Positions 1 to 37,263 of a stretch of DNA of 64,000 bases are shown here, piece after piece. Origin of the DNA: Candidatus Bathyarchaeia archaeon (lineage in GTDB: Archaea; Thermoproteota; Bathyarchaeia; Bathyarchaeales; Bathycorpusculaceae); contig JBEKHN010000002.1 of the NCBI GenBank assembly GCA_050012255.1, forward strand, positions 64,001 to 128,000, read 5' to 3'. A program made the position numbers and the translations under genes. The notes beneath the pieces are model-generated. The model was not told the origin of the DNA and ran no database searches. It saw nothing but the letters and a program-made list of their open reading frames with translations. Each line of letters starts with the position of its first letter. Positions within the stretch are counted from its first letter, which is position 1.

Positions 1-70
1 GGTAGCTCAGTACGGATAGAGCACCAGCCTCCTAAGTTGGTGGTCGTGGGTTCAAATCCCACCCCGCCCG
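1..70 (+). tRNA. tRNA-Arg(CCT), 5' end cut off by the window edge
   Basis: D-arm TAGCTCAGTACGGATAGAGC; anticodon stem CCAGC/GTTGG around loop CTCCTAA; T-arm GTGGG-TTCAAAT-CCCAC; acceptor 3' strand CCCGCCC+G; CCA not encoded. Confidence 0.93.
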
Positions 71-98
71 CTACGGCACTCAGGCCAAGACTTGTGAG

Positions 99-1121
99 TT
101 AAGTCTTTCTCGCTCGCACTTTTCCATTTACGAGTTTCCTTATAATCTTCTGCTTGTTTCTGTGGTACCATTGAGCAATTCGAGAGTACAATTTCAATCT
201 GTATAGTTTGGCTCTTTTGGGATCGTTGACAAGCATCCAATATGCGTAGCTGAAGTCTTCAATTGAGCCCGCTGTTGTTACGTCTGGTATAAACTCTATC
301 TCTTTAATTGACAATTGATGATGTTTTTTGTATTCCCTTAGAAAGAAATCGGCGCGCTCCAAATCCAGCTTGTGTTTCTGCCTTCTATCCCTGCAAGAGT
401 ACTGCAACAATATAGAAATGTCTTTTATCAATGTGTCATTCCCCGCACCTACATTTTCGAAGTCAATCAACCCTACCAATCTCTTGTTTTTCCATAGCGT
501 ATTTTCTGGATTGATGTCTCTGTGTAATGGATATGTTGGAAGTTTAGAATACTCTCGGCCATCCAAGCTTTTGATCAACGGAACGAGAATTGATGATTCT
601 TCAAGAAAAATCTGGTCTTTTCTGTCTTGCTTGTCCTTTCCTAAAATTTGTGCAGTGAACCTCTCTAACTCCTTCAAAACGGGTCTTCTGTTGAATACGT
701 CTCCAACACCTTTCTTGTTGTCCAAATCAGAGCTCTCAATCATCTTGTGATAAATCGCCATCATCTTTGCGCATTCCTTGAGTTCTGGATAGTCAAATTG
801 TTTGATATTCCTTCCTTCAATGTATTCATAAACCCAGAAACGGGAACCTTTGAACCTCAAAACGAACTTGCCATTTTTCGTTCTTATTGGGGCGGGGGTT
901 CTATAAGGAAATCCATGGTCTTTCAAATAAGTCAAATAGCTCAGTTCAAATCCCAAATCACTCGTTCGCACAAATCGGGAAACTTGCTTTAGAACATATC
1001 TCGATTTTGTAGTCTCAAGAATCCAATTGATATTTACTACGCCTCTTGTTGCTTGTTCATAACTAATAAAGTCTCCGATATCCCAATGTTCAAGAAGCGT
1101 TTCGATTTCTTTTTTATCCAT
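99..1121 (-). CDS. APH/homoserine kinase type II-like phosphotransferase
   Basis: 340 aa; Brenner motif HRDINPEN and downstream IDFE. Confidence 0.85.
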   Translation of the reverse strand: MDKKEIETLLEHWDIGDFISYEQATRGVVNINWILETTKSRYVLKQVSRFVRTSDLGFELSYLTYLKDHGFPYRTPAPIRTKNGKFVLRFKGSRFWVYEYIEGRNIKQFDYPELKECAKMMAIYHKMIESSDLDNKKGVGDVFNRRPVLKELERFTAQILGKDKQDRKDQIFLEESSILVPLIKSLDGREYSKLPTYPLHRDINPENTLWKNKRLVGLIDFENVGAGNDTLIKDISILLQYSCRDRRQKHKLDLERADFFLREYKKHHQLSIKEIEFIPDVTTAGSIEDFSYAYWMLVNDPKRAKLYRLKLYSRIAQWYHRNKQKIIRKLVNGKVRARKT

Positions 1122-1268
1122 TCTATTTCTCTTTTGCGCTCTTATGAGACAGGAATTAACGGAGACACGTCAAGAGACCTTCATCCTAATATCTGTGTCC
1201 TCGTTGAAGGGGGTGAATAGATATCGAGATTAAACAGGGTGCAAAAGAGTCGCTCGCCAGATAAGTGT

Positions 1269-1341
1269 GGATAGGGAGAAAAATGGGAGTCGCGGGAGAT
1301 ATCTCCATGTGGTATGGAGTTCAAATCCCACTCCGCCCGCC
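1269..1341 (+). repeat. att-like repeat copy A (arm + tRNA-Arg 3' fragment)
   Basis: 1319-1340 GTTCAAATCCCACTCCGCCCGC matches tRNA 50-71 at 21/22 nt. Confidence 0.85.
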
Positions 1342-1785
1342 TCGAAGTATACGTTGCCTTGCAGTGAGTCTCATGCCTAGACTGACTACATCATCTTCTT
1401 TGAAACCAATATGTTTGTAGAAGTCGATCACCTTAGCATTGCTTTTGCGAATCTGCAGGTTTACCTTCTGGCAACCTATCTTCTTTAGCTCATGTATGGC
1501 TTTTTGAACCAGTTTTCTGCCGTAGCCGTGTCGCTGTTCTTGAGGAGTGATGGCAAGGTAGTTTATCCAGCCTCTGTGACCTTCGTAACCGACCATGATG
1601 GAACCCATCACCTTCCCATCCAATAGACCTACGAGGAAAAGATTCGGTTGGAAACGCATCTTTTTCTCTATGTCTTCCACGGGGTCATTCTGGGGAACGA
1701 CTAGGTTACATGTTCGCCACAGCTCGATGACGGCATCCCGATATTCAGTTCTATATCTCACTATTCTGTATGCCAATCTCAGCAT
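1321..1785 (-). CDS. GNAT acetyltransferase (YpeA-like)
   Basis: GYEGHRGWINYLA, QRHGYG acetyl-CoA motif, NAKVIDFYKHIGF. Confidence 0.9.
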   Translation of the reverse strand: MLRLAYRIVRYRTEYRDAVIELWRTCNLVVPQNDPVEDIEKKMRFQPNLFLVGLLDGKVMGSIMVGYEGHRGWINYLAITPQEQRHGYGRKLVQKAIHELKKIGCQKVNLQIRKSNAKVIDFYKHIGFKEDDVVSLGMRLTARQRILRGGRSGI

Positions 1786-1979
1786 CTCCCTGGAACACGA
1801 AGGACGGCATTCCCAAATAAGTTCTCTTTTCCAAAATCTTCAAGTCTCTCTGCAAATACGCCCTTTCTTCAGACCCTATATTCTTGAAACTGAGCGCGCG
1901 CTAAGCAGAAAAAACTGAAAGTTTTTTAGCACCAGATCATTGTATTGGATTGGCATAGCGAAAGGCAGGAGAATGATTC

Positions 1980-2501
1980 TTGAAGGACGTTGAGTTGAGG
2001 CTTGTTGCTGAGCTTCTGAAGGACAGTCACAGGAGTGACAGGGAATTGGCAAAAGCGATCGGAGTTTCTCAGCCTACAGTCAGCAGAATGATTGGCAAAT
2101 TGAGGAAGGGTGGTTTCATTAGAGAATACACGATCATTCCCGATTTCAACAAGATCGGATACCACATTTGTGCCTTGACTTTCGCAAATTTTGAAACGCC
2201 GAAGGACTTGCAAGCTATGAGGAAGCTTGTTGAAGAACAGGGAAAAAGATTGTCGGAAATTCCTCAAGCCGTGATGATTGAGAGAGGCATAGGCGAAGGA
2301 GCTAATGGCGTAGTGATTTCTCTTCATCAGACCTATTCTGACTTTGTAGAGTTCCAACAGTGGCTGAAGCAGTTCGGTTCTTTAAGCAAGTACGGCCTTC
2401 ATCATTTCATCATAGATCTTGATGATAAAGTCCACTACCGCTACCTAACCTTCTCAACCCTCGCCAAACATCTGCTGGAAATGAAGGAAAAGAAGGAATA
2501 G
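1980..2501 (+). CDS. Lrp/AsnC family winged-helix transcriptional regulator
   Basis: N-terminal HTH RSDRELAKAIGVSQPTVSR; TTG start. Confidence 0.88.
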   Translation: MKDVELRLVAELLKDSHRSDRELAKAIGVSQPTVSRMIGKLRKGGFIREYTIIPDFNKIGYHICALTFANFETPKDLQAMRKLVEEQGKRLSEIPQAVMIERGIGEGANGVVISLHQTYSDFVEFQQWLKQFGSLSKYGLHHFIIDLDDKVHYRYLTFSTLAKHLLEMKEKKE

Positions 2502-2740
2502 GCTGCCTTCGCTTTAACCCTGGTCTGTACATTTTCCAGAAATGTTGTTTTGGCAAACGCCTTTGACTTTCAAACTCGAATTTTCATTTTGGATGACGAA
2601 TCTTGCTTTTACCCGCCGAAACCGAAAGGTTCGCGCGTTGCATCGTAGTGGCAATCGATCGTTCCTAGGTTTGTTGCTTTGAAGTCTTAGTCGCGAAACT
2701 TGGAGAGAAATATATCAGCCATATTATCTCGGATAAGGTG

Positions 2741-2863
2741 GTGAGACCTATTCCAAGTGAAATGGATACGATTCGAAAAAGGCTAGGCGAGTTAGAAGAA
2801 AGGATAAGGAAGATTGATAGGGCTCGACAAGTTGGAAGGGCAGAAGAAACAATAGCGCGCTAG
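2741..2863 (+). CDS. possible 40-aa charged, coiled-coil-like small ORF or gene relic
   Basis: GTG start after AAGGTG; peptide ..IRKRLGELEERIRKID..; below the ORF-track cutoff. Confidence 0.3.
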   Translation: MRPIPSEMDTIRKRLGELEERIRKIDRARQVGRAEETIAR

Positions 2864-2980
2864 GCAGATTGATCTAAGGCAGAAAGCAGAAGGCGTGTCA
2901 AGTTCGCCGATACTCTGCGGCCCACATCAGAAGTTTGTAGGAAACCTGACCATTCGGCCCGTGGCTTCAATGTTTTTACG

Positions 2981-3997
2981 GTGCCATCTGCATTTCCGAA
3001 AGAACACTGCAGGATTTGCGGGTCAACTCTTCACGGCAGGCTCTCTGGAAATATGTTCCCATCGGGTTGCAGTCACAACGTTTTAAAACTCGGAGCATCG
3101 CGCTATCATTGGTGTTCTGCTGTGTCACCCGGTGAAGGAATAGGGAAGATTACGAGCAACCCGTTTGCGACAGATGGAAAAGTCCTTCTGAGCAAAGTTG
3201 CGACGACTGGAAACCTGAAAGAGGACATCCTTAAAGCCGTTGATTTGATTGGCGGTTTCAACAAGGCCATCGACAAGGGCGACCAAGTCTTGCTGAAACC
3301 CAATTTTAACAGCACGGATTCTCCGCCCGCTTCAAGCGAACCGCAGTTTCTCAAAGCGATAGTTGAGTTGCTGTTCGAACATGGCGCCGGGAGAGTTGTC
3401 GTTGGAGAATCTTCTTGGCAAGCGCTTTCCACGAGGAAGGCTCTGGAACGAACTGGGACACTTGCCGCGCTTAAGGATTCAGGGGCAGAGATGGCGTTTT
3501 TCGATGAGGAAAAATACGTCAAAGTCAACGTTGGGGGCGAATACCTGAAAAGCGTCAGCTTATCAGAGAGGGCCATGCGAGTTGACAAGTTAGTTTATTC
3601 CTGCTGCATGAAGACACATTTCCGCGCTGACTTCTCCTTAAGCTTGAAATTGGCCTTCGGGTTCACGAAGAAGAGCGAAAGGAACGGGTTTCACATCAGG
3701 CATCTGAAAGAGAAACTTATCGATCTAAACCTAGTCGTGCATCCGAACCTGATAATCATGGACGGAAGAAAATGTTTCATAACCGGAGGACCATTCAGCG
3801 GCGAGGTGCGGAACCCAAACGTCATTCTTGCTTCCGGAGACCGAGTGGCCATGGACGTTGAATCCATCAAAGTTCTTGAAAGTTTCGAAGGTTCCAAACT
3901 GAAGAACAACCCTTGGAGCTATACTCAGATCCGCCGCGCAACCGCTCTCGGGCTTGGAGTAAGAAACGAGGATGAGTACACGGTTGTTTCCAACTGA
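2981..3997 (+). CDS. DUF362 domain protein (true start probably near 3140)
   Basis: VLLKPN, VVVGES, KTH, SLSLK and IMDG motifs; the first ~53 codons look non-coding. Confidence 0.85.
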   Translation: MPSAFPKEHCRICGSTLHGRLSGNMFPSGCSHNVLKLGASRYHWCSAVSPGEGIGKITSNPFATDGKVLLSKVATTGNLKEDILKAVDLIGGFNKAIDKGDQVLLKPNFNSTDSPPASSEPQFLKAIVELLFEHGAGRVVVGESSWQALSTRKALERTGTLAALKDSGAEMAFFDEEKYVKVNVGGEYLKSVSLSERAMRVDKLVYSCCMKTHFRADFSLSLKLAFGFTKKSERNGFHIRHLKEKLIDLNLVVHPNLIIMDGRKCFITGGPFSGEVRNPNVILASGDRVAMDVESIKVLESFEGSKLKNNPWSYTQIRRATALGLGVRNEDEYTVVSN

Positions 3998-4150
3998 CAT
4001 CACATCAAAAGTGCACGCATCATCCAGCGTCTAATCCTCTAACTTCACTTACCGCATGCTGTATCATGTGTGCCGCAGTTGCAATTACAAAACCCAGGGA
4101 ACCTCTTGATGTGAAGCTCAAAGCGCGCGCGAAGTGCAGCGAGCCCCAAA

Positions 4151-4215
4151 GGACAAAGAAAAGGGAGACTTGCACGATATCGTCGTTTAGTTTGGGGGCA
4201 AACCCACCCCGCTCG
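4151..4215 (+). repeat. att-like repeat copy B
   Basis: GGACAAAGAAAAGGGAGACT..GATATC arm, then CAAA-CCCACCCCGCTCG versus tRNA CAAATCCCACCCCGCCCG (16/18 with one gap). Confidence 0.6.
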
Positions 4216-4455
4216 TTGCAGAAAGATCGGACTGTTTGCAATTCCTCTTTAGCCGGGTTCCTTTCAAGTTCCTCATGCGAGTGGCTTCGTTAGCGCGCTG
4301 GTTTGTCCCTAAGCTATTTAATGCTCATTTTTGGCACGTGGGGTCTCTTATTTTGTGGCTTGCGTCCAAGCCTAGGAGATGGGTTCTTCTGGCGCTAAGC
4401 TATTGCAACCCATAATGCATATTAGCTGATGTAGAAAATTACGTTCGATTGAAAC

Positions 4456-5157
4456 ATGAAGCTGTTGTCGACGAAGGTTGTGGCGTTCACTGGGGTTTTT
4501 GCGGCTTTTCATGCCACGTTGTATTTGATTTCGCCCGCGTTTTTATGGCGAAATTGGGCTATCTATTTATCGCCTATCGAGGGGATGGTTCTGGGTCCTT
4601 GGGCAGGGTTCATAGCCGCCTTGATTGGCAGCACGATCGGCAGAGTGCTGCTTCCCAGTCCTTTGTGGATGTTCGGGATAATTGCAGAGCCGTTGAGTGT
4701 GATGTCCGCAGGCTTCTTGACAAGAGGCAAGTGGCAGCCGGTCATAGTTCTTTACGCCGTCATGCTTGCCGCATACTTCATCAGTCCCTTGGGCCAGTCG
4801 CTTCCGCTTTGGCCTATGCTGGACATTATTGCTGCTGTTTGTTTAGTGTATCCTGCATGTAGGTTGAGTAAGAACCTGTTCAGCAAAAACATGAACCTTC
4901 TCCCCGTATCCCTGGTTATCGTGTCGCTCATAACAGTGGCTACGGACGGTCTGATCAGAGTATTCCTGTTCATACCAGCCGGGCTGTACAGCAGCGTTCT
5001 AGGCTTATCTCCTGAGGCCACCGTAGTTGCGTTTGTAGGCGGCGGGGTTGACTCTTTCATTGAAGATGCCTTTGTCGTGTTGATCGCTCTCCTTGTCGGT
5101 GTTCCAATTCTTTTGGCCTTACGGAAGGTTTTAGACCTAAGAAAACCGTTAAGTTAA
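4456..5157 (+). CDS. integral membrane protein, ECF S-component-like
   Basis: 233 aa, about 6-7 hydrophobic helices, GMVLGPWAGFIAALIG motif. Confidence 0.65.
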   Translation: MKLLSTKVVAFTGVFAAFHATLYLISPAFLWRNWAIYLSPIEGMVLGPWAGFIAALIGSTIGRVLLPSPLWMFGIIAEPLSVMSAGFLTRGKWQPVIVLYAVMLAAYFISPLGQSLPLWPMLDIIAAVCLVYPACRLSKNLFSKNMNLLPVSLVIVSLITVATDGLIRVFLFIPAGLYSSVLGLSPEATVVAFVGGGVDSFIEDAFVVLIALLVGVPILLALRKVLDLRKPLS

Positions 5158-5390
5158 AAGAAGAGCACAGAGACCTCGCTGTCTGGAAACCCGGGAAGCT
5201 CTCTGAGTGCTCTCCCAATCTCTGACACTGCGTTTTGATATCTATGAACAAGGCCCAATGACTGTTTTCTAACCCGCCGCCTTGGCTGCGGGCCCATACC
5301 CAACTGGCTTCCTAAAGAAAACTCTAAGGATCGCGCTGGGTCTTGACGAGGAAGATGCCTTTATAAAACGAGGCGTTTTAGTCACCTGCT

Positions 5391-6071
5391 ATGAGAGTCG
5401 GAGTGCTTTTCTCAGGGGGAAAAGACTCGTGTTTGGCGTTGCACAAATCGCGGAGTTTTCATGATGCAGTTTGTCTGATAAGCTTGATCTCCGAAAGTGA
5501 GGAGAGCTACATGTTTCATGTTCCCAACATAGAATTGACTGATAAACAGGCTGAAGCCATTGGGTTGCCGCTGGTTCAGAGGAGAACGGAAGGCAAGAAA
5601 GAGAAGGAACTCGAAGATCTGAAAAGAGCCATTTGTACGGCCAAAGCTGATTTTGACTTGGAAGGAATAGTGACGGGCGCCGTAAGATCAATCTATCAGT
5701 CAACACGGGTGCAAAGAATCTGTAAACAGCTCGGTTTGTGGTGCTTCAACCCCTTATGGCTAAAGGATGAGATAGAGCTTCTGAACGAGGTTGTCAAGAG
5801 TAAATATGAAGTTATCATATCTGGCGTATTCGCTTTTCCCTTGGACAGAGAATTCTTGGGAAAAAACTTGGATAATGAACTGATTCAGAAGCTCGCAAGA
5901 TTGAAGGAAGAGTATGGTTTAAGCCCTGCTGGGGAAGGTGGGGAAATAGAGACGACTGTGACGGACGCCCCTTTTTTTAAGAAAAGGCTAGAAATCCTGG
6001 ACTCTGAGGTCTCTTACAAGGACTACTCGGGCATGTTCAGGATAAAAAGTCTGAGGCTAATCGACAAATGA
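5391..6071 (+). CDS. dph6: diphthine--ammonia ligase (PP-loop ATPase, DUF71)
   Basis: SGGKDS PP-loop, SYMFH, PLW and GEGGEIET motifs. Confidence 0.9.
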   Translation: MRVGVLFSGGKDSCLALHKSRSFHDAVCLISLISESEESYMFHVPNIELTDKQAEAIGLPLVQRRTEGKKEKELEDLKRAICTAKADFDLEGIVTGAVRSIYQSTRVQRICKQLGLWCFNPLWLKDEIELLNEVVKSKYEVIISGVFAFPLDREFLGKNLDNELIQKLARLKEEYGLSPAGEGGEIETTVTDAPFFKKRLEILDSEVSYKDYSGMFRIKSLRLIDK

Positions 6072-6631
6072 TTCTGATAGTAAATGTGTGTTCAGACAAG
6101 CTAAGCTATCTGGAGTTTGTCAAGCCCGTCGAAGACATTCTGAAAAAGGCTGGAGCAGAATCCTTCACAAGACACTTCCTGCGCGTGAATCATCGTGACA
6201 TCAGCCGAGCAGAAAAAGTGATCATATGCGGAACAGCCTTGAAGGATTTCAAGTATTTGGGTAGCACAAGAAAATTCGCGTGGATAAATGAATCGCGCAA
6301 ACCGATCCTTGGCATCTGCGCAGGAATGCAGATCCTTGCGAAACTCTTCAATGGTCACATCATTGAAAGAACAAGAATCGGAAGATACAAGGTGAAGATT
6401 ATCCGAAAAAGCATTGTTGCATCCAAGGATGAATTCTATTCCTATTTCTTGAATTCTAAGGCGGTGGAACCGACCGAAGACTTTGAGACACTCGGCGAAT
6501 CGGGCAACTTGAAATGCATAATCAAACACAAACATAGAAGATTCTACGGATGTTTATTCCATCCAGAAGTCCTGAACCCAGAAATCATAACAAACTTCCT
6601 AAAGGAGCCAATGCCAGAGAGTCAGTGCTAA
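6068..6631 (+). CDS. class I glutamine amidotransferase subunit
   Basis: PILGICAGMQ nucleophile elbow and FHPE dyad; ATGA overlap with dph6. Confidence 0.85.
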   Translation: MILIVNVCSDKLSYLEFVKPVEDILKKAGAESFTRHFLRVNHRDISRAEKVIICGTALKDFKYLGSTRKFAWINESRKPILGICAGMQILAKLFNGHIIERTRIGRYKVKIIRKSIVASKDEFYSYFLNSKAVEPTEDFETLGESGNLKCIIKHKHRRFYGCLFHPEVLNPEIITNFLKEPMPESQC

Positions 6632-6763
6632 GGTAACCACGACAGACTCTGAAAACGAATAGAACTTCGAGGCAGGTGCAGGTCTTCAAATTATAAATAT
6701 GTGCTACGCATAATTGCAATCGTCGTCTAGTGATATCGCCAAAAATAGATGTGAGGTTAGCCA

Positions 6764-7444
6764 ATGGGAAAATTAAGTATGGACGATGTCTTTAAAGCCT
6801 TGGCAAAGCCGCTTCCTGACTTCAAAATAAAGCCTGGAAAGACAGCCTTACTTCTGATCGACATTCAAAACCTCGTGAGCTCAAAACCACTGCTTCAAGA
6901 AGCACTGGACGCAGGGCTGCCTGAAAGACAAGTGAAAGAAGCTTTGCAAGAATATGATGAAAGGGTCAAGAAAGCGGTGAAAAATGCCCGTAGGATACTG
7001 CAAGTCTGCAGGAAGAAAGGCTATGACATAGTGCACATTAAGTTAGGAGCACAGACCAGCAACCCCAGGCATACAGCCAAGATAAACAGAAAAGCTGACT
7101 TCATCGTGCCCATGGACGCGGAAAAGGGTAGATTCTTGGATGAAGTCAAACCAGTAAAGGGAGAATTGATTTTCCCAAAGACAAACGGAGGAGCGTTTAC
7201 GGGAACCAATCTGGACTTCGTTCTGAGGAACATGGATATTGACAGTATCATCGTCACGGGATTCCTAACTGACCAATGCGTTCTCGCAACCGCAATCTAC
7301 GGCGGAGACATAGGGTACGACGTTCTCTTAGTTGAGGATGCATGCACCGGAACCACCAAAGAGAATCACGATGCAGTAGTAAGGCTCGCAAGAGACGTGT
7401 TCTTGAAGATCAAATCAACTGCGGAACTAATACGAATTCTCTGA
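6764..7444 (+). CDS. isochorismatase-family cysteine hydrolase
   Basis: TALLLIDIQN, catalytic K in FPKT, GFLTDQCV. Confidence 0.9.
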   Translation: MGKLSMDDVFKALAKPLPDFKIKPGKTALLLIDIQNLVSSKPLLQEALDAGLPERQVKEALQEYDERVKKAVKNARRILQVCRKKGYDIVHIKLGAQTSNPRHTAKINRKADFIVPMDAEKGRFLDEVKPVKGELIFPKTNGGAFTGTNLDFVLRNMDIDSIIVTGFLTDQCVLATAIYGGDIGYDVLLVEDACTGTTKENHDAVVRLARDVFLKIKSTAELIRIL

Positions 7445-7521
7445 CAAGAAATATTCTTGGGTTTTTGCACCTGCCTCCAGATTATTTGGTGCATCCAAAA
7501 AGGAGAGTTGTGCTCGGATGC

Positions 7522-8340
7522 TTAATGTGGCATGAATACTCCGGCGAACACGAGCCAGGCTAGGAGTGTTTTCGCTGCGAAACTGAGGATTATGTAGGCT
7601 CTTTCGCCGTACAGGTAGTCTTTCCAGCGTCCGATGCTCTTGTACTGTAGAACCATGTTGACTGCGAAGACCATGAAGAGAGCGAAGTAAGTGAAGAGTA
7701 TGAAGTACACGAATGTAGGCGGACCCGAGGTTGAGGAGTTGACGGCGGCTACGAAATAGGCGAAAATCACGACCCATGGGAGGCCGCCAGAGATGCAGCC
7801 TAGGCTGAATGCGGACCAGTTCGTCTTCTCGGTCTTCTGATTCACCAGCTCCATCAGGTATCCGAACATTATCATCATCGCGTTCAACACAAAAATCATT
7901 GAGAGGGACCAGAAATCCCAGATGCCGACAAAGGTTGCTATCAACGCTATCATTATGGAGCTTGAGAAGGCATACTCGTACCAGCGGTAAGGGTTCATAC
8001 CCTTCTTCAGATTCTCATCATAGCTTTTGTTCTTAGGATAAGCAATCGCAAAATGCGCTATCGCAGAAATCAGAGGAAAAGTCGCTAGTATGACTCCTAG
8101 ATTGTTGAACGTGAAGAGGATCTGAGGGTTAGGCATCCACAGTAAACCGCCGGCTTTTAGGTAGAACGTGTGCACCTTTATGGGCCAATTCAATAAGAAA
8201 CCCAAAGTCAACATTAGGATTCCTTGAATCAGATGCAGAACACCTGCAGCAGCATTGAACCTCTTCAGATAGGCAAAAGAAATAGGCGAACGAGCGATTA
8301 TCTCCTGTCTTTCTATATAGTTCATGAAACGACTTATCAT
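7522..8340 (-). CDS. heR: heliorhodopsin
   Basis: LHLIQG, SAIAH, NPYRWYEYAFSSSIM (counterion E) and GERAYIILSFAAKTLLAW with the retinal-binding Lys; 7 TM. Confidence 0.95.
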   Translation of the reverse strand: MISRFMNYIERQEIIARSPISFAYLKRFNAAAGVLHLIQGILMLTLGFLLNWPIKVHTFYLKAGGLLWMPNPQILFTFNNLGVILATFPLISAIAHFAIAYPKNKSYDENLKKGMNPYRWYEYAFSSSIMIALIATFVGIWDFWSLSMIFVLNAMMIMFGYLMELVNQKTEKTNWSAFSLGCISGGLPWVVIFAYFVAAVNSSTSGPPTFVYFILFTYFALFMVFAVNMVLQYKSIGRWKDYLYGERAYIILSFAAKTLLAWLVFAGVFMPH

Positions 8341-8390
8341 CAGAGAACGCTAATAGGCTTTTGCAGACTTTTGCCAAGAGAATGACGACT

Positions 8391-8458
8391 GGATAAGAAG
8401 AGGGGACTCGCGGGAGACATCGCCACTAGGTGCAGTTCTAAATCCAGTCTTCCCCGCC
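8391..8458 (+). repeat. att-like repeat copy C
   Basis: 8403-8425 matches 1285-1307 at 20/23, followed by degenerate GTTCTAAATCC..CCCGCC. Confidence 0.6.
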
Positions 8459-9388
8459 GGAGAAACGCCTCGCCCGTATGGTCTCTTGAGGCACATTGAA
8501 AGGGTCATGGTCTTTTCTACTTCCCCTCTGAATGTATAGCAAAAATGCAACGATTATTCCTAGCAGTATCATGAATGCTCTGAGACCTCCGCCGACACTT
8601 GTAGAAGTTGCCACGCCGACGAATGCTGTCGCATCATACGCTCCATGGATCAAAGCTGGGGCAAACAGATTACCACCTGAGAGATAATACGTTGCCGCCA
8701 TAGCCATCCCGAAAGTAACAAGATCGGCAAATTGAACCAACGAAGCTGGCCCATACACAACAGCATAGTAGAGATGTGTAGCACTGAAAAGGAGAGAAGA
8801 AACGAAGGCGAGGATCAACCAATGGCGATTCTTGAAAACGTCCAGTAATCCCCCGAACACAAAACCTCTGAAGATATACTCTTCAGCTGGCCCCGTCACC
8901 AGAAGGGAGACGCCCACCATGATCCAAGCAAAATCGCGAGAAACGTTCAGCACAGGATTCGGTTTATCCAGCAGTCTTGCGGTGGAAGGGTCAAGCGCAA
9001 CCAAGAAAACAAGAATCACCACAGCCAAAACTATTCCCAAGACCGTGAAAACCCCGAATAACCCTAAACCCAGCTTTAACCCGGAATAGGTGTTCTTGAA
9101 GAATCTCCTTATTATCGCTGTTCCCCAGAGCAAGGTAATAGCCAGTACCGGCACTCCGTAAACAAGTAGAGACCCAACAATCAGCCCGAGATGCACCCCC
9201 AAATATTGAAATAGATATTGAGAGTACACAGCCACGAACACTATGACTAACCCGAGAACGTAAAACTTCTTTCCCTTAGGCTCGCGTTTCGAGTTGCTGC
9301 CCATGCTTTCCGAAAGTCGGCTTTGGTCCTTTTCGTCTGATGTTTTCATGGAACCACTGGCGTTTTCTATTTTAGGCATTTCCAGCAA
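8438..9388 (-). CDS. CPBP/Abi (CAAX-type) intramembrane glutamic protease
   Basis: EEYIFRG, FSATH and HGAYD motifs. Confidence 0.9.
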   Translation of the reverse strand: MLEMPKIENASGSMKTSDEKDQSRLSESMGSNSKREPKGKKFYVLGLVIVFVAVYSQYLFQYLGVHLGLIVGSLLVYGVPVLAITLLWGTAIIRRFFKNTYSGLKLGLGLFGVFTVLGIVLAVVILVFLVALDPSTARLLDKPNPVLNVSRDFAWIMVGVSLLVTGPAEEYIFRGFVFGGLLDVFKNRHWLILAFVSSLLFSATHLYYAVVYGPASLVQFADLVTFGMAMAATYYLSGGNLFAPALIHGAYDATAFVGVATSTSVGGGLRAFMILLGIIVAFLLYIQRGSRKDHDPFNVPQETIRARRFSGGEDWI

Positions 9389-9422: not shown

Positions 9423-10718
9423 TTATTCGTATCTTAGGGCTTCTACTGGTTTAAGCTTTGAAGCACGCCAAGCTGGGTAAAGTGCAAAGATTGCACTGAC
9501 CCCTACGCCGAAGACTAATGCCAGTATGGTTACTGTCGGAGTTAAAAGAGGGGTTATCGTCATTCCACCTGTGTTCGCAGCTCGGTTTCCCCCGAACACG
9601 CCGCCTCCGCGAAAGACTAATGCAACCACGTTTGCTAGGACCCAACCTGAGCCTATGCCAATCGCTGCGCCGATCAAACCAATTATCACCGATTCGCACA
9701 AGAAAATCAAGAGCACTGTTTGACCTTTCATCCCCAACGCTTTCAGTATGCCTATCTCTCTCGTGCGCTCCATCAAAGACACGATCATGATGTTCATTAT
9801 GCCTATCCCTGCGACCAGAAGCGAGATGGCGGCGATTCCACCTAAGAAGAGTTGTATCACGGAGAAAACATTCGAAAGAATGCTAAGCACTGCTGTTGCA
9901 GAGGTTACCGAGACTTCGTTGCTGAAAGCCGCCTTTATGGCCTGAGTAGCATTGTCAATCGATGCTTGATCATCGCTTGCCAATTTCACAATTATCGAAT
10001 TACATTCCTCAGTTCCAAAGAAGCTTTGAGCTTGAGAAATTGGAATGTAAACATCGGTGTCAGAAGGCCCGATGATGCCGAAGCCTCCGATCTCTTTGAG
10101 AACAGCCGTGACTTTCCCAGCATAAGTCTCATTTGTCGGTGGAATTTTCGTTGCGTTAGTCCAAATCATTTCAACTGTGTCATTTACACTGCAGAACAAG
10201 GTGTCATTGTTCCCGGGAGCACTTACGCGTTTTCCAACCACGATCATTTCGTTTTCTGGATTCGTTGGTATGGTTCCATTCTCGGGTACAAAAGTGCTGC
10301 TGTATATGCTTGCGTATTCAGCGAAGTCCACACCTACTATGGTAACATTCTGGACTGTTTGATTGAACTCAATGCGGCCTGTCCTTTGAATTATCGCCAT
10401 TGACGTTTCGACATTTGTTAGATTGTTGATCATCTGCGTATAGTTGACCAACAGTTTGAAGCCTGAATTCGCGCCCGTCCCGCCTTGGGCGCCGGCGCCG
10501 AAGCCTCCAAAGCCTCCTCCAGTTGAGACAATTAGCGTGTCGGTGGCGAATCCTGTTTTGAGCTGATCAGTTATGGCGGCCTGCAGACCCTGAGTGATTG
10601 AGAGCAAGGCAACGATGGCTGCAATGCCGATGACCACTCCTAAGGTGGTCAAACCAGCTCGAAGCTTTCTCAGTTTGATCGCGCTGAAAGAATAAGACAG
10701 GATATCCTGGGCTTTCAT
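9423..10718 (-). CDS. ABC transporter permease, MacB/FtsX family
   Basis: LTTLGVVIGI, ERTREIGILKALG, PVEALRYE. Confidence 0.93.
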   Translation of the reverse strand: MKAQDILSYSFSAIKLRKLRAGLTTLGVVIGIAAIVALLSITQGLQAAITDQLKTGFATDTLIVSTGGGFGGFGAGAQGGTGANSGFKLLVNYTQMINNLTNVETSMAIIQRTGRIEFNQTVQNVTIVGVDFAEYASIYSSTFVPENGTIPTNPENEMIVVGKRVSAPGNNDTLFCSVNDTVEMIWTNATKIPPTNETYAGKVTAVLKEIGGFGIIGPSDTDVYIPISQAQSFFGTEECNSIIVKLASDDQASIDNATQAIKAAFSNEVSVTSATAVLSILSNVFSVIQLFLGGIAAISLLVAGIGIMNIMIVSLMERTREIGILKALGMKGQTVLLIFLCESVIIGLIGAAIGIGSGWVLANVVALVFRGGGVFGGNRAANTGGMTITPLLTPTVTILALVFGVGVSAIFALYPAWRASKLKPVEALRYE

Positions 10719-10719
10719 G

Positions 10720-11430
10720 TCAATTCACGACCTCCTGAACTATCAAGCCATCGAACATCTGCACAATTCTCTTCGCTTGGCCCGCCAGACGTTGGTCGTG
10801 AGTGACCATTATTATGGTCACGGTTTTCTCTTCGTTGAGTCTCTTGATCAGACCGATTATTTCGCCGGCAGCTTTTGAGTCTATGTTCCCCGTGGGCTCG
10901 TCCATCAGAAGAAACTTGGGATTGTTCGACAAAGCCCTCGCAATGGCTACGCGTTGTTGTTCGCCGCCGCTCAGTTCGGTTGGCCTGTGATTCATTCTTT
11001 CTTTCAGTCCCACTGTTTCCAGGAGATTCTCTGCGTGCTTTCTTCTTTCTGCTTTGCCGAGACCTGCGATAGCCATTGACAACTCAACATTTTCTCTTGC
11101 TGTGAACCGTGGGATCAAGTTGAAAAACTGAAACACGAAGCCTATCCGACATCTAAGATCCGCTAATTGGCCGTCATTGAGCGTGGAAACGTCAACGCCC
11201 TCGATCCGCAATTTGCCTTCTGTTGGTTTGTCCAGGGCTCCGATCAGATTTAGCAGCGTTGACTTCCCGCTTCCGGAGGGGCCCAGAACGGCGAGGAAAT
11301 CGCCGCTCTCGACCTTCAGGTTCACGCCATCCAAGGCGTTGACTGGAATCTTTCCAAGCATGTAAGTTTTCTTCAGGTTGACTGCTTCAACTGTCGTCGT
11401 CGCAGGTGCCATCTTCGTTTTCTCGTCCAT
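10720..11430 (-). CDS. ABC ATP-binding protein, LolD/MacB type
   Basis: GPSGSGKS, LSGGEQQRVAIARA, DEPTGN, VTHD. Confidence 0.95.
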   Translation of the reverse strand: MDEKTKMAPATTTVEAVNLKKTYMLGKIPVNALDGVNLKVESGDFLAVLGPSGSGKSTLLNLIGALDKPTEGKLRIEGVDVSTLNDGQLADLRCRIGFVFQFFNLIPRFTARENVELSMAIAGLGKAERRKHAENLLETVGLKERMNHRPTELSGGEQQRVAIARALSNNPKFLLMDEPTGNIDSKAAGEIIGLIKRLNEEKTVTIIMVTHDQRLAGQAKRIVQMFDGLIVQEVVN

Positions 11431-14934: not shown

Positions 14935-15184
14935 GATGGGCACGTTAAAGATGACCTGACCTCGCATCCACATTTTTCTGCTAGTCATTTCCCTTTTTCT
15001 TCAGATTTTATGGGCACTCGCCCTAAAATTCTAGTTTACTTCATTTGCAGTTGAATGTAAACTCAAGTAGTTACGCTTGTTTTTGGAGATTTGCCGAATT
15101 AGCGGCGGAGATGTCGGCTTTTTTCATTCTAGCCTTCGCTAGCAAACAAAATTCTTCAGCAGGCGCGATTCTTTATTTCCGCGG

Positions 15185-17653
15185 TTAACTCTCAGTTTTC
15201 TTCCTTTCTTCCGTGAAATACTGTGGAAATTCTCTGAGTTTTTCGGCCATTTCTCCAAGTCGTTTATCCACTCTGTAGTTAACGGTTCCTTTCTCGAAAG
15301 ATCCATCTTCTTGCCTTTGGCCGGCTTTGACCCCTGTTAGAATTTCTATTCCTTCATCGATGGTTTTAACGGGGTATACGTGGAATTTCTCCTGTTGAGC
15401 TGCTTGCACTACTTCCTCTTTCAGCATCAGGTTCTGCACGTTGCTCTCCGGTATCATCACTCCCTGTTTGCCGGTGAATCCTTTTGCCTTGCAGACTTCG
15501 AAGAAGCCTTCGATTTTTTCGTTCACTCCGCCGATGGCTTGAACCTCGCCCTTCTGGTTCACTGAGCCAGTGACGGCAACGTTTTGCTTTATAGGCAGGT
15601 CAGACAGGGCGGACAGGATAGCGTAGAGTTCGGTGCTTGAGGCGCTGTCACCCTCCACTCCTTCATAGTTCTGTTCAAAAACAAGACGGGCTGAGAGACT
15701 GAGAGGCTTGTCCTGCGCGTACTTCTCATTGAGGTAGCCGCTTAGAATAAGGACCCCTTTTGTGTGGATGGGTCCTCCCATCTTGGCCTCCCTTTCAATA
15801 TCGACCACGCCTTCTCGACCCAGACCCACGCTGGTCGTTACTCGCGAAGGACTGCCAAAGGCGAAGTCACCCAGCCCTATCACCGAAAGGCCGTTGACTT
15901 GACCCACATTCTCTGCGTCCGTATCGATGAGGAGGAACCCTCTCTTGATCATCTCTTCAATCTTTTCTTGAATGAGTTTTGAACGGTAGACCTTCTCTTC
16001 GATAGCTTTTTTCACGTGAGTTCCAGTAACAAAATCTGAGTTATCTTGCGTCGCGTAGAAGTTAGCTTCGCGAATGATGTCAGCAACCTCAGCAAACCTG
16101 GTGGAGAGTTTTTGCTGGTCTTCAGCCAGTCTTGAGCTATGTTCGACCAATTTGGCCAGGCCTGAGCCGTCAAGGTGTTTCAGATTCTCCTTCTTACACA
16201 ACGTGCAAACAAAAACTGCGTATTGCTGTATGCTCTCTTCTGTCCGATCCATGGTTGTGTCAAAATCTGCCTTAACCTTGAAGAGTTGATTAAACTCCAT
16301 GTCCAAGATGAACAATTCCTGATAGAGGTAGGGGTCTCCAATTAGAATCACCTTGACGCCCAGAGGAATCGGCTCAGGTTTCAAGCTCTTCGTCGTAATG
16401 AAACCCAAACGTTCTTCTGCCTCTTCAATGACGATTTGCTCATTCTTGAGGGCCCTTTTCAAGCTATCATATGAGAAAGGATTACGCAGCAACTCTTCAA
16501 CTGGAAGAATCAGATAGCCGCCATTGGCCTTGTGTAAGGAACCCCCACGGATCATGGTGAAGTCCGTCACAAGCGCTCCAAACTGAGCCTCCTTTTCCAC
16601 TCGACCAAAAAGGTTCTGATAAGTGGGGTTAGATTCCATTACCACAGGAGCTCCCTTAACATCCGAGTTATCAACGATGATCTTTGCCTCGTACTTCCTG
16701 AAGGGAGTCTCTCTCATCCAAGGAACTGGGAAAGGAGTCTGTGGTTGCTCTTCCGACCCTTTTATGAACCGGGATAGGTTGTCGAGGATGTCATTCTGCA
16801 CGTCGTCTACGTGAGCGACGACATCAGGGAAATCCTTGTATTCTTCTTTCAAGTCAGTCACTATGTGCCCGATGGCGAAAAGGGCAACCTCACGATTCAG
16901 TTTTTTGAGCTCTGCGTCGGCTTTCCCCTCTAATTCTCTGAGTTGTCTCATAGTGTTCAGGAATTGCTCGCTCAGCTGTTCTCTCTTCTTCTCGATTCCT
17001 TCTCGAGTTTTCTGGTCTAATTTCATGAATTCTTCGTCGTTCACAGGTTTTCCTTTGATTACTGGAATCATGAGCCAACCCACAGGTGACGCTTGCAGAA
17101 TGAAGCCTTCCTCTTGGGCCCGTTTCGTAAGTTGCCCGATGAGTTTCTGCCTTTCCTCTTCAACAGTCTTAACAGTGTTCGCTCTTCTTACGCCGTAATC
17201 CTCGCTTTCAAAGGATTTTGGCAGAATTCTCAATGCTTCGTTGATGAAGGTGGCCATGTCGTCTCGAAAGTGTTTGCCTTTGCCAGCAGGCAGCTTTATG
17301 GCTTTAGGCTCGTACGGGTTGCGAAAGTTGTACACGTAACACCAGTCTGAGGGCACCGGCTTGGTTTGAGCCGTTTCTTCCAAGAAGTTTCTAACGGCCG
17401 TTGTCCTCCCTGTTCCGGGGAAGCCTGCAACATAGATGTTAAATCCGCGTTCCCTGATGCCTAACCCGAACTTGAGCGCTCTGACAGCCCTTTCTTGGCC
17501 AATAATCTCTTGAAGGGGGACTAGCTCCTGCGTGGTCTCACAGTGCATAAGATTAGGGTCGCATTCTCTTCTCAGCCTTTCTGCAGGCAGCTCGTTTACC
17601 ATCTCATACATCCTCCTCACTGTGAAATGATGTTCATATATTACGAAGCGCAA
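15185..17653 (-). CDS. lonC: Lon-like protease, LonC type (AAA-like + S16 domain)
   Basis: IIGQERA, variant Walker A GFPGTGRTT, EGDSAS catalytic Ser and NEKIEGF Lys; start likely 17603-17612. Confidence 0.88.
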   Translation of the reverse strand: MRFVIYEHHFTVRRMYEMVNELPAERLRRECDPNLMHCETTQELVPLQEIIGQERAVRALKFGLGIRERGFNIYVAGFPGTGRTTAVRNFLEETAQTKPVPSDWCYVYNFRNPYEPKAIKLPAGKGKHFRDDMATFINEALRILPKSFESEDYGVRRANTVKTVEEERQKLIGQLTKRAQEEGFILQASPVGWLMIPVIKGKPVNDEEFMKLDQKTREGIEKKREQLSEQFLNTMRQLRELEGKADAELKKLNREVALFAIGHIVTDLKEEYKDFPDVVAHVDDVQNDILDNLSRFIKGSEEQPQTPFPVPWMRETPFRKYEAKIIVDNSDVKGAPVVMESNPTYQNLFGRVEKEAQFGALVTDFTMIRGGSLHKANGGYLILPVEELLRNPFSYDSLKRALKNEQIVIEEAEERLGFITTKSLKPEPIPLGVKVILIGDPYLYQELFILDMEFNQLFKVKADFDTTMDRTEESIQQYAVFVCTLCKKENLKHLDGSGLAKLVEHSSRLAEDQQKLSTRFAEVADIIREANFYATQDNSDFVTGTHVKKAIEEKVYRSKLIQEKIEEMIKRGFLLIDTDAENVGQVNGLSVIGLGDFAFGSPSRVTTSVGLGREGVVDIEREAKMGGPIHTKGVLILSGYLNEKYAQDKPLSLSARLVFEQNYEGVEGDSASSTELYAILSALSDLPIKQNVAVTGSVNQKGEVQAIGGVNEKIEGFFEVCKAKGFTGKQGVMIPESNVQNLMLKEEVVQAAQQEKFHVYPVKTIDEGIEILTGVKAGQRQEDGSFEKGTVNYRVDKRLGEMAEKLREFPQYFTEERKKTES

Positions 17654-37049: not shown

Positions 37050-37263
37050 CAGCCTGTTCCATTTCGTACGTCAGGTCAGAGTGCTGCTCGCCCAACCTTG
37101 TGTTGAAACAGGAAAATAGGGGAATTGCGGGAGCAAACGGTCATTAAACGACTGATATCTGAATTGAAGTTTCTTCCACAAGCCACAAAAAAGCCGCAAA
37201 GCAAAACTATGAAGTATGTGAGGTATTTGTCTGGGTAAGGAAGCGGGTCGTATAAAGATCACG

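Follow-up and report, generated by a model that had tools for sequence, protein, structure and literature searches.

The tRNA-Arg(CCT) island and its repeat units

The window analyzed here is a stretch of 64,000 nucleotides on contig C2 of a peat Bathyarchaeon genome (G000). ARAGORN, run on the whole genome, places a tRNA-Arg(CCT) gene at G000:C2:63996-64071, starting 5 nt ahead of the window; because the gene is cut by the window edge, ARAGORN made no tRNA call on the isolated window. The Rfam tRNA model RF00005 scores 54.1 bits on window positions 1-70. Behind this gene, short repeat units alternate with blocks of genes, which Pfam searches found to be those named in the preliminary description. 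The features are as follows.

1..71, plus strand: tRNA-Arg(CCT), the anchor on the putative attL side (ARAGORN on the whole genome; Rfam RF00005)
72..1268, no strand assigned: islet 1, with one APH-family phosphotransferase (kinase) gene at 99-1121, minus strand
1269..1341, plus strand: unit A, a family arm (A-run, G-run, GCGGGAGATATCTCCA) followed by a copy of the T-loop/acceptor 3' end of tRNA-Arg
1342..4150, no strand assigned: islet 2 (Pfam), with a GNAT gene at 1321-1785 (minus strand, stop within the core of unit A), a wHTH/AsnC-type regulator at 1980-2501 (plus strand) and a DUF362 gene at 2981-3997 (plus strand)
4151..4215, plus strand: unit B, a tRNA-Arg 3' copy (20/24 columns) after a weak arm (ACGATATCGT palindrome)
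4216..5234, plus strand: membrane-protein gene block (ORF 4456-5157)
5235..5283, plus strand: possible fourth, decayed junction (GATATC ... GTTTTCTAACCCGCCGCC), recognized by eye without a statistical test
5284..8390, no strand assigned: dph6 block (Pfam), with dph6 at 5391-6071, GATase at 6068-6631, an isochorismatase-family hydrolase at 6764-7444 and heliorhodopsin at 7522-8340 (minus strand)
8391..8458, plus strand: unit C, a family arm (GCGGGAGACATCGCCAC) followed by a decayed T-arm-like tail
8438-9388, minus strand: CAAX-protease gene, stop inside unit C
37108..37165, plus strand: weak, interrupted arm-like sequence (GAAAATAGGGGAATTGCGGGAG ... GATATC; independent profile 9.5 bits, E 0.022)

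All three units had been described as a non-tRNA arm joined to a tRNA copy. To assess the cores, each unit was locally aligned with the 3'-terminal 30 nt of the tRNA, and the null distribution came from 20,000 70-mers drawn at random from the window. Unit A matches in 24/26 columns (score 40) and unit B in 20/24 columns with one gap (score 26), and neither score was reached by any of the random 70-mers. The core of unit C (10/11 columns, score 15) is equaled or exceeded by 4.3% of random 70-mers and is therefore not significant alone. The reported 20/23 match between the arms of A and C was reproduced (score 31; 0/20,000 random), and the arms of A and B align with a score of 15, which is not significant because 4.8% of random sequences reach it. 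A profile made independently of G000, from 52 units of other genomes and with the orthologous loci left out, scores 42.9 bits on unit A (E 7e-13) and 30.5 bits on unit C (E 5.5e-9) and does not find unit B at E<=10. Its maximum over 50 shuffled 64-kb windows is 7.6 bits, just below the score of the arm-like sequence at 37108..37165. By these tests only A is complete: B has a tRNA-Arg 3' copy but a doubtful arm, and C has a family arm but a decayed core whose derivation from tRNA-Arg cannot be shown. The polarized series proposed to lead outward from this single tRNA is thus shown for A and B only.

The islet 1 phosphotransferase (Pfam PF01636, E 1.4e-18) lies in sequence of foreign composition, with a GC content of 0.397 versus 0.472 for the window. 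A homologue of this islet occurs in 1 of 120 other genomes of the family, there too as one gene flanked by a tRNA and a partial copy of that tRNA; single-gene islets of ~1.2 kb are found at two different tRNAs in two genera. The block before unit C contains the sole Diphthami_syn_2 match (dph6) in G000 and may therefore be old chromosome rather than an inserted cassette. Genes occupy both strands within and between islets.

The arm family and its boundaries in relatives

The arm consists of an A-run, a G-run and the palindrome GCGGGAGAYRTCKCCAC, over a conserved length of ~35 nt. There are 41 copies in G000, all non-coding and intergenic, and further copies in relatives; the arm is joined to several different tRNAs and to RNase P RNA at their 3' ends. 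It belongs to a mobile-element family spread through Bathyarchaeia and is not private to the tRNA-Arg locus: the attachment arm previously thought common to the islets is shared and element-derived, but it belongs to a genome-wide family at many tRNAs and RNase P RNA. Within G000, 13 of the 41 unit cores are of tRNA type and 3 correspond to the RNase P RNA 3' end. The 3' ends of tRNA and RNase P RNA genes are classic integration targets. An exact-pattern scan of genome contigs returned 17 loci titled Bathyarchaeia or Bathyarchaeota (two overlapping) and one titled Thermoproteota, all confirmed by the profile; its many bacterial matches were taken as chance and ignored. Neighboring units on the same strand (n=18 pairs) have a median spacing of 2.1 kb, with 7 pairs closer than 1.9 kb.

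Of the G000 units, 16 have a recognizable core, and in just 3 of these is the cognate gene found upstream on that contig. The 7 loci (8 units) examined in G001, a closed genome, have no tRNA within 3 kb, and the tRNA-type unit at 213044 has its nearest tRNA ~35 kb away on the opposite strand. Most units thus differ from a simple attR site next to its target gene. The unit at C8:29440 sits within an island inserted at an unrelated site, which counts against the explanation favored below.

Several other identities for the arm were considered. That it is coding, as the end of a recombinase gene, was rejected: no ORF crosses the arm, and no long ORF spans any of the 41 G000 arms in six frames. A CRISPR-like solitary repeat was also rejected, as a simple k-mer scan detected no array in G000, where arrays may be unassembled. 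A tRNA-like mini-helix with covariation was dropped after inspection by eye because the GCGGG of the arm is constant while acceptor ends vary.

The gene content beside tRNA-Arg(CCT), which the preliminary description proposed to compare, is not invariant in relatives. In G007 the tRNA is directly followed by the GNAT block: window positions 14-75 and 1309-1890 align to G007 positions that overlap, and 76-1308, i.e. the kinase islet, are missing precisely at the repeat, the behavior predicted for att junctions at a tRNA. At unit A, the place of the kinase islet is taken in G001 by a heliorhodopsin islet of 2.2 kb that has another arm variant. Homology restarts in the T-loop of unit A, at 1319 for G001 and at 1309 for G007, and islet 2 is present in both at ~90% identity with an internal indel at 2520-3040. 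Unit B lies at a synteny break, where homology to both relatives stops at 4121 and the B region is replaced by ~9 kb in each. The membrane-protein block is found elsewhere in G001, with no unit adjoining it, and inverted within the island in G007. In all three genomes the dph6 block has its left edge at the possible fourth junction (~5235-5283); this is the exact point at which homology to G001 and G007 sets in (boundaries 5277 and 5287), and in G001 CGGAGATATCCGCC is fused at the same point. G001 also lacks part of the heliorhodopsin region (7685-8354). Its orthologous C unit is 76% identical to that of G000, compared with 91-93% in the flanking genes, which fits a neutral scar. Where right flanks are orthologous in the sample, the left cassette differs at 3/3. 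Among the contigs of four runs (X1, X2, X3 and X5), none bridges the islet 1 site, and no circular or excised form was found or was callable. Cover of the kinase part (301-1200) is zero in X2, X3 and X5 except for 0.6 and 0.31 in bin 601-900, and, with the site unbridged, says nothing on absence. For the 'back' joints 1307->48 in these contigs, the simplest explanation is other units in other strains.

A host cis-element (promoter-operator, terminator or small RNA gene), spread or kept as such with the link to tRNA ends secondary, would also be intergenic in its 41 G000 copies and conserved in its palindrome throughout an order. The reverse strand of the arm ends in a T-run as a terminator would, ~14 of the ~25 units inspected by eye lie directly downstream of a convergent gene, and the orthologous C pair keeps 13/13 palindrome positions with ~60% identity around them. 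Against this, the arm is fused to tRNA and RNase P RNA 3' ends, marks exact presence/absence boundaries and ranges from 0 to 15 copies among genomes of one genus. The distance and orientation of the arm to neighboring genes vary, and Rfam finds only the tRNA in window 1-9000, with no RNA family matching the arm. We consider a host element very improbable.

Homologous recombination between conserved flanks could remodel a flexible island, with the repeats acting as homology anchors and no current site-specific recombination. Blocks are indeed swapped between conserved flanks in G000, G001 and G007, and imperfect repeats of 12-18 nt flank a 1.9-kb difference between loci L085 and L047, which come from two genomes. 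These same loci share 3,425 bp at 97.9% identity, which ends at TTCAA in the T-loop and gives way to two different tRNA 3' ends. A switch that falls within a loop of 7 nt and leads into different tRNA remainders is the signature of site-specific exchange, seen in this one pair among the 103 units compared. Together with the integrases linked to the arm, it makes remodeling by homologous recombination improbable.

Integrases and the origin of the islets

The reported lack of an integrase was corroborated: neither integrase nor remnant was detected in window 1-9000 (best E 0.04). A PF00589 search for tyrosine recombinases yielded 14 matches in the whole G000 genome, none of them on contig C2; no resolvase or serine recombinase in G000 reached the cut-off. 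By comparison of coordinates by eye, none of the 41 G000 units lies within 8 kb of these 14 matches. In three related elements of other Bathyarchaeia (L077, L147 and L150), the arm precedes a tyrosine integrase gene by ~30 nt. The L077 integrase scores 41.8 bits to PF00589 and has no match in a phage collection, and in-frame stops separate its start from the arm; those of L147 and L150 have 82% and 62% identity, the latter being a pseudogene. A fourth, intact arm copy (L155) adjoins a truncated homologue. Close homologues of the arm-linked integrase are absent from G000, G001, G003, G007, G008 and G024, several of which are unit-rich, and the best G000 match to the arm-linked integrases has 28-30% identity. 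Among 80 units of relatives, an integrase adjoins the arm in 1, and in 5 others an integrase or integrase fragment of another family lies alongside. ORF clustering over 31 sources revealed no recurrent family near units except the three-member integrase cluster.

With somewhat better than even confidence, we interpret the region as an additive genomic island formed by repeated site-specific integration at tRNA-Arg(CCT) and carrying integrase-less cargo. The units are very probably att junctions, and the crossover probably falls in the T-loop, which would explain how one element family uses many tRNAs. Each unit would be an attR-type junction made by what is most likely a tyrosine recombinase. 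Its element-derived part would comprise the A-run, G-run and palindrome GCGGGAGAYRTCKCCAC, ~8 nt and then the 5' T-stem strand; after strand exchange in the T-loop, the rest of the tRNA would derive from the target. The arm would come from an integrative-element family; in full-length members it precedes the integrase start by ~30 nt, on the opposite strand, where it may hold the integrase promoter or operator. Newcomers would insert at the intact tRNA or in the T-loop of an existing junction, and older junctions would be pushed outward. The islets would be cargo-only, most of them small modules without an integrase, which would be supplied from elsewhere in the manner of CIMEs; that they are modules mobilized in trans is possible, at somewhat less than even chances.

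The islets could instead be immobile leftovers of integrase-bearing elements that integrated serially at tRNA-Arg and then lost the integrase and most other genes. Integrase loss after integration has been observed in archaea, according to a review of archaeal recombinases (PMC8371274), and decay is visible here in the pseudogene of L150 and the truncated gene of L155, each beside an intact arm. Unit-rich genomes without a matching integrase and the faster evolution of orthologous unit C relative to its flanking genes also agree with decay. Against this, no integrase remnant remains beside the arm in the window or beside any of the 41 G000 units. Since intact elements have the arm 30 nt from the integrase start, repeated deletions would need to spare it each time. 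Single-gene islets of ~1.2 kb at two different tRNAs in two genera, and several arrays with ~1 kb spacing, likewise count against it. We regard serial decay as rather doubtful.

If the trans-mobilization of the favored reading is extended, Bathyarchaeia would possess a cassette economy like that of integrons but with no integron in residence; we consider this unlikely. Each cargo module would then carry a compact site formed of the arm (with promoter or operator) and the T-arm. The landing pad would be any T-loop, whether in a tRNA gene, at an RNase P RNA end or, harmlessly, in an existing junction, and recombinase would act in trans from rare arm-bearing integrase elements. Such an economy, if true, would account for arrays being dispersed, for cores being chimeric and for integrases being almost wholly missing beside units.

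Bathyarchaeia are abundant, uncultured archaea of sediment and peat in which gene exchange is hardly known. The ~35-nt arm is a signpost for the entry and exit of accessory genes, including heliorhodopsin and phosphotransferase, and offers a practical handle to map the flexible genome, find the responsible integrases and test the movement of integrase-less modules.

Comparison with known systems

Elements that target tRNA genes through tyrosine integrases are recognized by a direct repeat of the tRNA 3' end, which is found in A and B (C not being significant), by presence or absence exactly at the repeat, as in G007 and G001, and by an integrase within the element, which is seen in L077, L147 and L150 only. 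In SSV-type 'suicidal' integrases the att site lies inside the ORF and leaves Int(N) and Int(C) halves at the junctions, unlike here. Archaeal tandem integration and 'gene capture' are also among the closest parallels.

The integron-like platform first suggested for this locus is not sustained. As in integrons, small interchangeable gene modules form arrays, each bounded by a recombination site, with entry at one end. Integron cassettes are mostly promoterless and co-oriented, and attC sites are long imperfect palindromes with R/L boxes. In contrast, island genes here are in mixed orientation, no dedicated IntI-type integrase adjoins the array, the anchor is a tRNA gene, and each unit joins a palindrome of 12-17 nt to a tRNA 3' copy and is not a folded palindrome of the attC type. 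Our search of the literature on integrons or attC in Archaea/Bathyarchaeota, and on RNase P RNA as an archaeal integrase site, found nothing, and no account of a dispersed conserved arm family or of Bathyarchaeial arrays turned up among the papers searched.

Tycheposon islands of Prochlorococcus lie beside tRNA genes with partial tRNA copies between elements and older elements pushed inward (Hackl et al., bioRxiv 10.1101/2020.12.28.424599). The resemblance extends to side-by-side elements in a tRNA-adjacent island with partial tRNA copies as separators, degenerate remnants, scattered partial tRNAs and niche-gene cargo. Tycheposons belong to another domain of life, and none of their hallmark genes was apparent here. 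Unlike them, the Bathyarchaeial island has a ~35-nt conserved arm at its junctions, with RNase P RNA also a target and nearly all junctions without an integrase. Archaeal elements with tyrosine recombinases return to a single tRNA site, build up arrays and shed the integrase; the cases given in a review and in a study of Thaumarchaeota iMGEs, unlike the present one, are few, multi-gene elements (PMC8371274, PMC6563490).

CIMEs of Firmicutes, which take part in tandem accretion at ICE/IME attachment sites, keep their att sites and lose integration genes, and later elements enter the resident attR; mobilization by the integrase of a related element has been proposed and cis-mobilization shown experimentally, according to a review (PMC5704250). 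Islets 1 and 2 are similarly flanked by att sites without integration genes. CIMEs, as portrayed there, are decayed conjugative elements of several kb, whereas these are 1-4 kb archaeal cargo islets without conjugation genes, and the arm-linked integrases that might mobilize them were found in other genomes only, not in the same host. With tycheposon islands, CIME accretion and archaeal tandem integration already described, the general principle is known, and the tRNA-Arg region is a gene-swapping hotspot of this known kind in a group without an earlier description in the literature searched. Trans-mobilization, if true, would give archaea an equivalent of integron cassettes and CIMEs.

The tRNA-Arg locus and its units

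The locus is anchored by a tRNA-Arg(CCT) gene at positions 63996-64071 of contig C2 of the source genome (G000), 5 nt of which precede the window start. Gene identities downstream of it were assigned with Pfam.

Genes downstream of tRNA-Arg (window coordinates)
99-1121, minus strand, APH-family phosphotransferase
1321-1785, minus strand, GNAT acetyltransferase
1980-2501, plus strand, wHTH/AsnC-type regulator
2981-3997, plus strand, DUF362 protein
4456-5157, plus strand, membrane protein
5391-6071, plus strand, Dph6
6068-6631, plus strand, class-I glutamine amidotransferase
6764-7444, plus strand, isochorismatase-family hydrolase
7522-8340, minus strand, heliorhodopsin
8438-9388 onward, minus strand, CAAX protease, then ABC transporter genes

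Units A (1269-1341), B (4151-4215) and C (8391-8458) lie in intergenic DNA where the preliminary description had placed them, each said there to join a related arm to a copy of the tRNA-Arg end (the core). We aligned the last 30 nt of tRNA-Arg to each unit, with 20,000 random 70-mers of the window as the null. The cores of A (24/26 columns) and B (20/24 columns) gave scores reached by 0/20,000 of these, and the tail of C aligned over just 10/11 columns, with 4.3% of the random 70-mers scoring as high. The 20/23 match between arms A and C was reproduced, with 0/20,000 random segments as high; arm A versus arm B was not significant (4.8% of random segments reach the score). An independent profile of 52 units, all from genomes other than G000, scored A at 42.9 bits and C at 30.5 bits in the window and missed B, against a maximum of 7.6 bits in 50 shuffled windows. 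On these core, arm and profile tests, therefore, A is a complete unit, B copies the 3' end of tRNA-Arg but its arm is doubtful, and C has a genuine family arm with a core no longer assignable to a tRNA; the claim of three two-part units stands for both parts of A, the core of B and the arm of C, and is not supported for the arm of B and the core of C. A and B are in all likelihood att junctions at tRNA-Arg.

A further decayed junction is possible at 5235-5283, where homology to two relatives begins exactly and where, by eye, the arm palindrome is fused at the same point in the related genome G001. At 37108-37165, some 20 nt of other sequence separate a left arm half from GATATC; this interrupted arm-like stretch exceeds the highest shuffle score only slightly. 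On the minus strand of C2 at about 63720-63870, shortly before the window begins, a T-arm and acceptor end resemble a long-arm or intron-bearing tRNA, with no ARAGORN call.

Islets turn over between close relatives

G001 and G007, two close relatives sharing the locus, have about 90% DNA identity with G000 there, and the differences fall exactly at the units. Directly after tRNA-Arg, G000 carries a single-gene kinase islet (76-1308) that is absent from G007, in which the tRNA is joined straight to the GNAT block. G001 has in this place a 2.2-kb heliorhodopsin islet with its own arm variant (GCGAGTGATATCTCAC), and its homology to the window restarts at 1319, within the T-loop of unit A. The G001 heliorhodopsin gene by the tRNA (L003:2299-3151) is 80% identical to the window's 7522-8340 and in the other orientation, and at the position of the G000 gene G001 keeps a C-terminal remnant only; on this comparison, heliorhodopsin belongs to the pool of flexible genes. 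In the B region, G000 has B and the membrane protein gene, and G007 and G001 each have about 9 kb of other DNA; the left neighbour of the dph6 block is different in each of the three genomes. Where right flanks were orthologous in our sample, the left-hand cassette differed in 3/3 cases. The kinase islet has a GC content of 0.397, versus 0.472 for the window. Across 120 further genomes of the family it has one homologue, 70% identical and from another genus; this too is a lone gene, with a tRNA on one side and part of the same tRNA's 3' end repeated on the other.

Islets therefore turn over between close relatives, and gene content between the repeats, on whose variability the preliminary description had staked its reading, is not syntenic and invariant, G000, G001 and G007 differing at the units. 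The stack would have grown by repeated integration, the latest islet lying closest to the tRNA. A 520-640 bp indel that separates the regulator and DUF362 genes (window 2520-3040) is missing from G007 and from contigs of three wetland runs, with 11 nt of shared sequence at one joint.

The dispersed arm family and its integrase

A profile scan of the genome and its relatives, as had been proposed, recovered 41 arm copies across many contigs of G000 (E<=0.05) and found the arm again in relatives. The consensus consists of an A-run, a G-run and GCGGGAGAYRTCKCCAC, and no long ORF spans the motif in the six frames examined in G000. An exact 14-mer of the arm is present in 24 of 41 genomes sampled from the genus, family and order (0-15 copies each), and its reversal, taken as a control, turned up a single time in the whole sample. 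A scan of species-representative genomes yielded 17 loci with Bathyarchaeia or Bathyarchaeota record titles, two of them overlapping, and one titled Thermoproteota, all profile-confirmed; bacterial matches were chance-like. L025, a 4.4-kb contig in an acidobacterial bin (record title Candidatus Acidoferrum MAG), has a good arm unit with A-run context and may be a misbinned Bathyarchaeial contig. Several further arrays like the window's occur in G000, and others in the relatives G008 (three units, spaced 2.6 and 3.1 kb) and G024 (three units, 1.0-1.2 kb) and on the Bathyarchaeial contig L085 (five units inside 6 kb); 18 same-strand neighbouring pairs within 8 kb were counted among 105 units, with a median spacing of 2.1 kb.

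At locus L077, a 313-aa tyrosine recombinase (PF00589, 41.8 bits) is encoded on the strand opposite to the core, and the arm precedes its start by about 30 nt. A homologue with 82% identity (L147) and a pseudogene with 62% (L150) have the arm in the same place, a truncated homologue sits beside an intact arm (L155), and more distant homologues (<=59% identity) are without the arm. The arm derives from integrated elements, and a family of tyrosine integrases is linked to it. Its T-run precedes the predicted start of the arm-linked integrase genes by about 25-35 nt, for which a promoter role is conceivable, and the arm would carry integrase control signals. Among 80 units of relatives, the L077-type arrangement is found in one, and 5 more have beside them an integrase, or a piece of one, from other families; the geometries there differ from that of L077 and would fit neighbouring elements.

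The array is without an integrase, as first described, and window 1-9000 holds no integrase remnant. Tyrosine recombinases do exist elsewhere in G000 (14 PF00589 matches), with 0/41 units within 8 kb of them (coordinates compared by eye), and no close homologue of the arm-linked integrase was found in G000, G001, G003, G007, G008 or G024. That islets are merely decayed full elements is unlikely, and still a substantial rival; that most are integrase-less modules, with the integrase acting in trans, is put forward tentatively.

On contig C5 of G000 (14985-15852), a partial tRNA 3' copy with no ARAGORN call overlaps the beginning of an oppositely oriented ORF for a tyrosine recombinase. The first 20 residues of this ORF resemble the antisense of a tRNA end (E 0.076 only), and the locus may be an SSV-type split integrase. 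On C28, a low-GC 16-kb contig with three units, a solitary cas1 (9903-10999; locus L006) ends 9 nt before an arm unit and may mark a casposon-like element; no CRISPR array was found in the G000 assembly.

Targets, crossover point and known systems

Cores of the 41 G000 units were scored against a 99th-percentile random threshold. In 13 the arm is followed by the 3' end of a G000 tRNA, of several different kinds, in 3 by the archaeal RNase P RNA 3' end, and in 25 by nothing recognisable. The RNase P RNA gene itself (C13:7910-8216, minus strand; Rfam RF00373, 191 bits) is directly followed by a tyrosine integrase-bearing element (C13:279-8000) whose integrase gene starts about 30 nt past the RNA gene; 7.6 kb away on C13 the 3' end of that RNA gene (GGGTTACGACCAACACGCC) recurs as a direct repeat, without the family arm. 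In this archaeon the RNase P RNA gene serves as a target for integration.

The Bathyarchaeial contigs L047 and L085 have 3,425 bp in common at 97.9% identity, ending at ...AGGATTCAA in the T-loop of the unit. Past the T-loop, one has a tRNA-Cys-like remainder and the other a different tRNA's remainder with CCA, and the two are homologous again about 2 kb beyond the switch. A switch of this kind is expected from strand exchange in the T-loop, and it probably maps the exchange there; no second such pair turned up among the 103 units compared, so this is a single clean event and carries no statistic.

Several observations fit a simple picture poorly. Of the 16 G000 units with an assignable core, only 3 have the cognate gene upstream of them on their own contig. 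The genome of G001 is closed, and there the 7 unit loci examined (8 units) have no tRNA within 3 kb; its tRNA-type unit at 213044 is separated by about 35 kb from the closest tRNA, which is on the other strand. One arm unit (C8:29440) lies inside a strain-specific island of G000 inserted at a second hot spot, unrelated to tRNAs (C8 at about 26197, L014:1197), where at least 8 kb follow ...GGCAAAGTTTTAT; G001 has there a 1-kb insert at the same point (L225:4369-5377), flanked by an 18-nt imperfect direct repeat, and in G007 the site is empty. The dph6 gene in the block before C is the sole dph6 of G000, and the unit C orthologue in G001 has diverged to 76% identity. Given the distant cognates, the C8 island unit, the sole dph6 and the diverged C, units either move within larger mosaics or serve as landing pads themselves, and some of them are no more than scars.

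In the literature searched, neither the arm family nor arrays in Bathyarchaeia were described, and no paper reported integration at RNase P RNA in archaea. The general principle is already in print, in work on tycheposon islands (bioRxiv 10.1101/2020.12.28.424599), on CIME accretion (PMC5704250) and on archaeal tandem integration with integrase loss (PMC8371274, PMC6563490).
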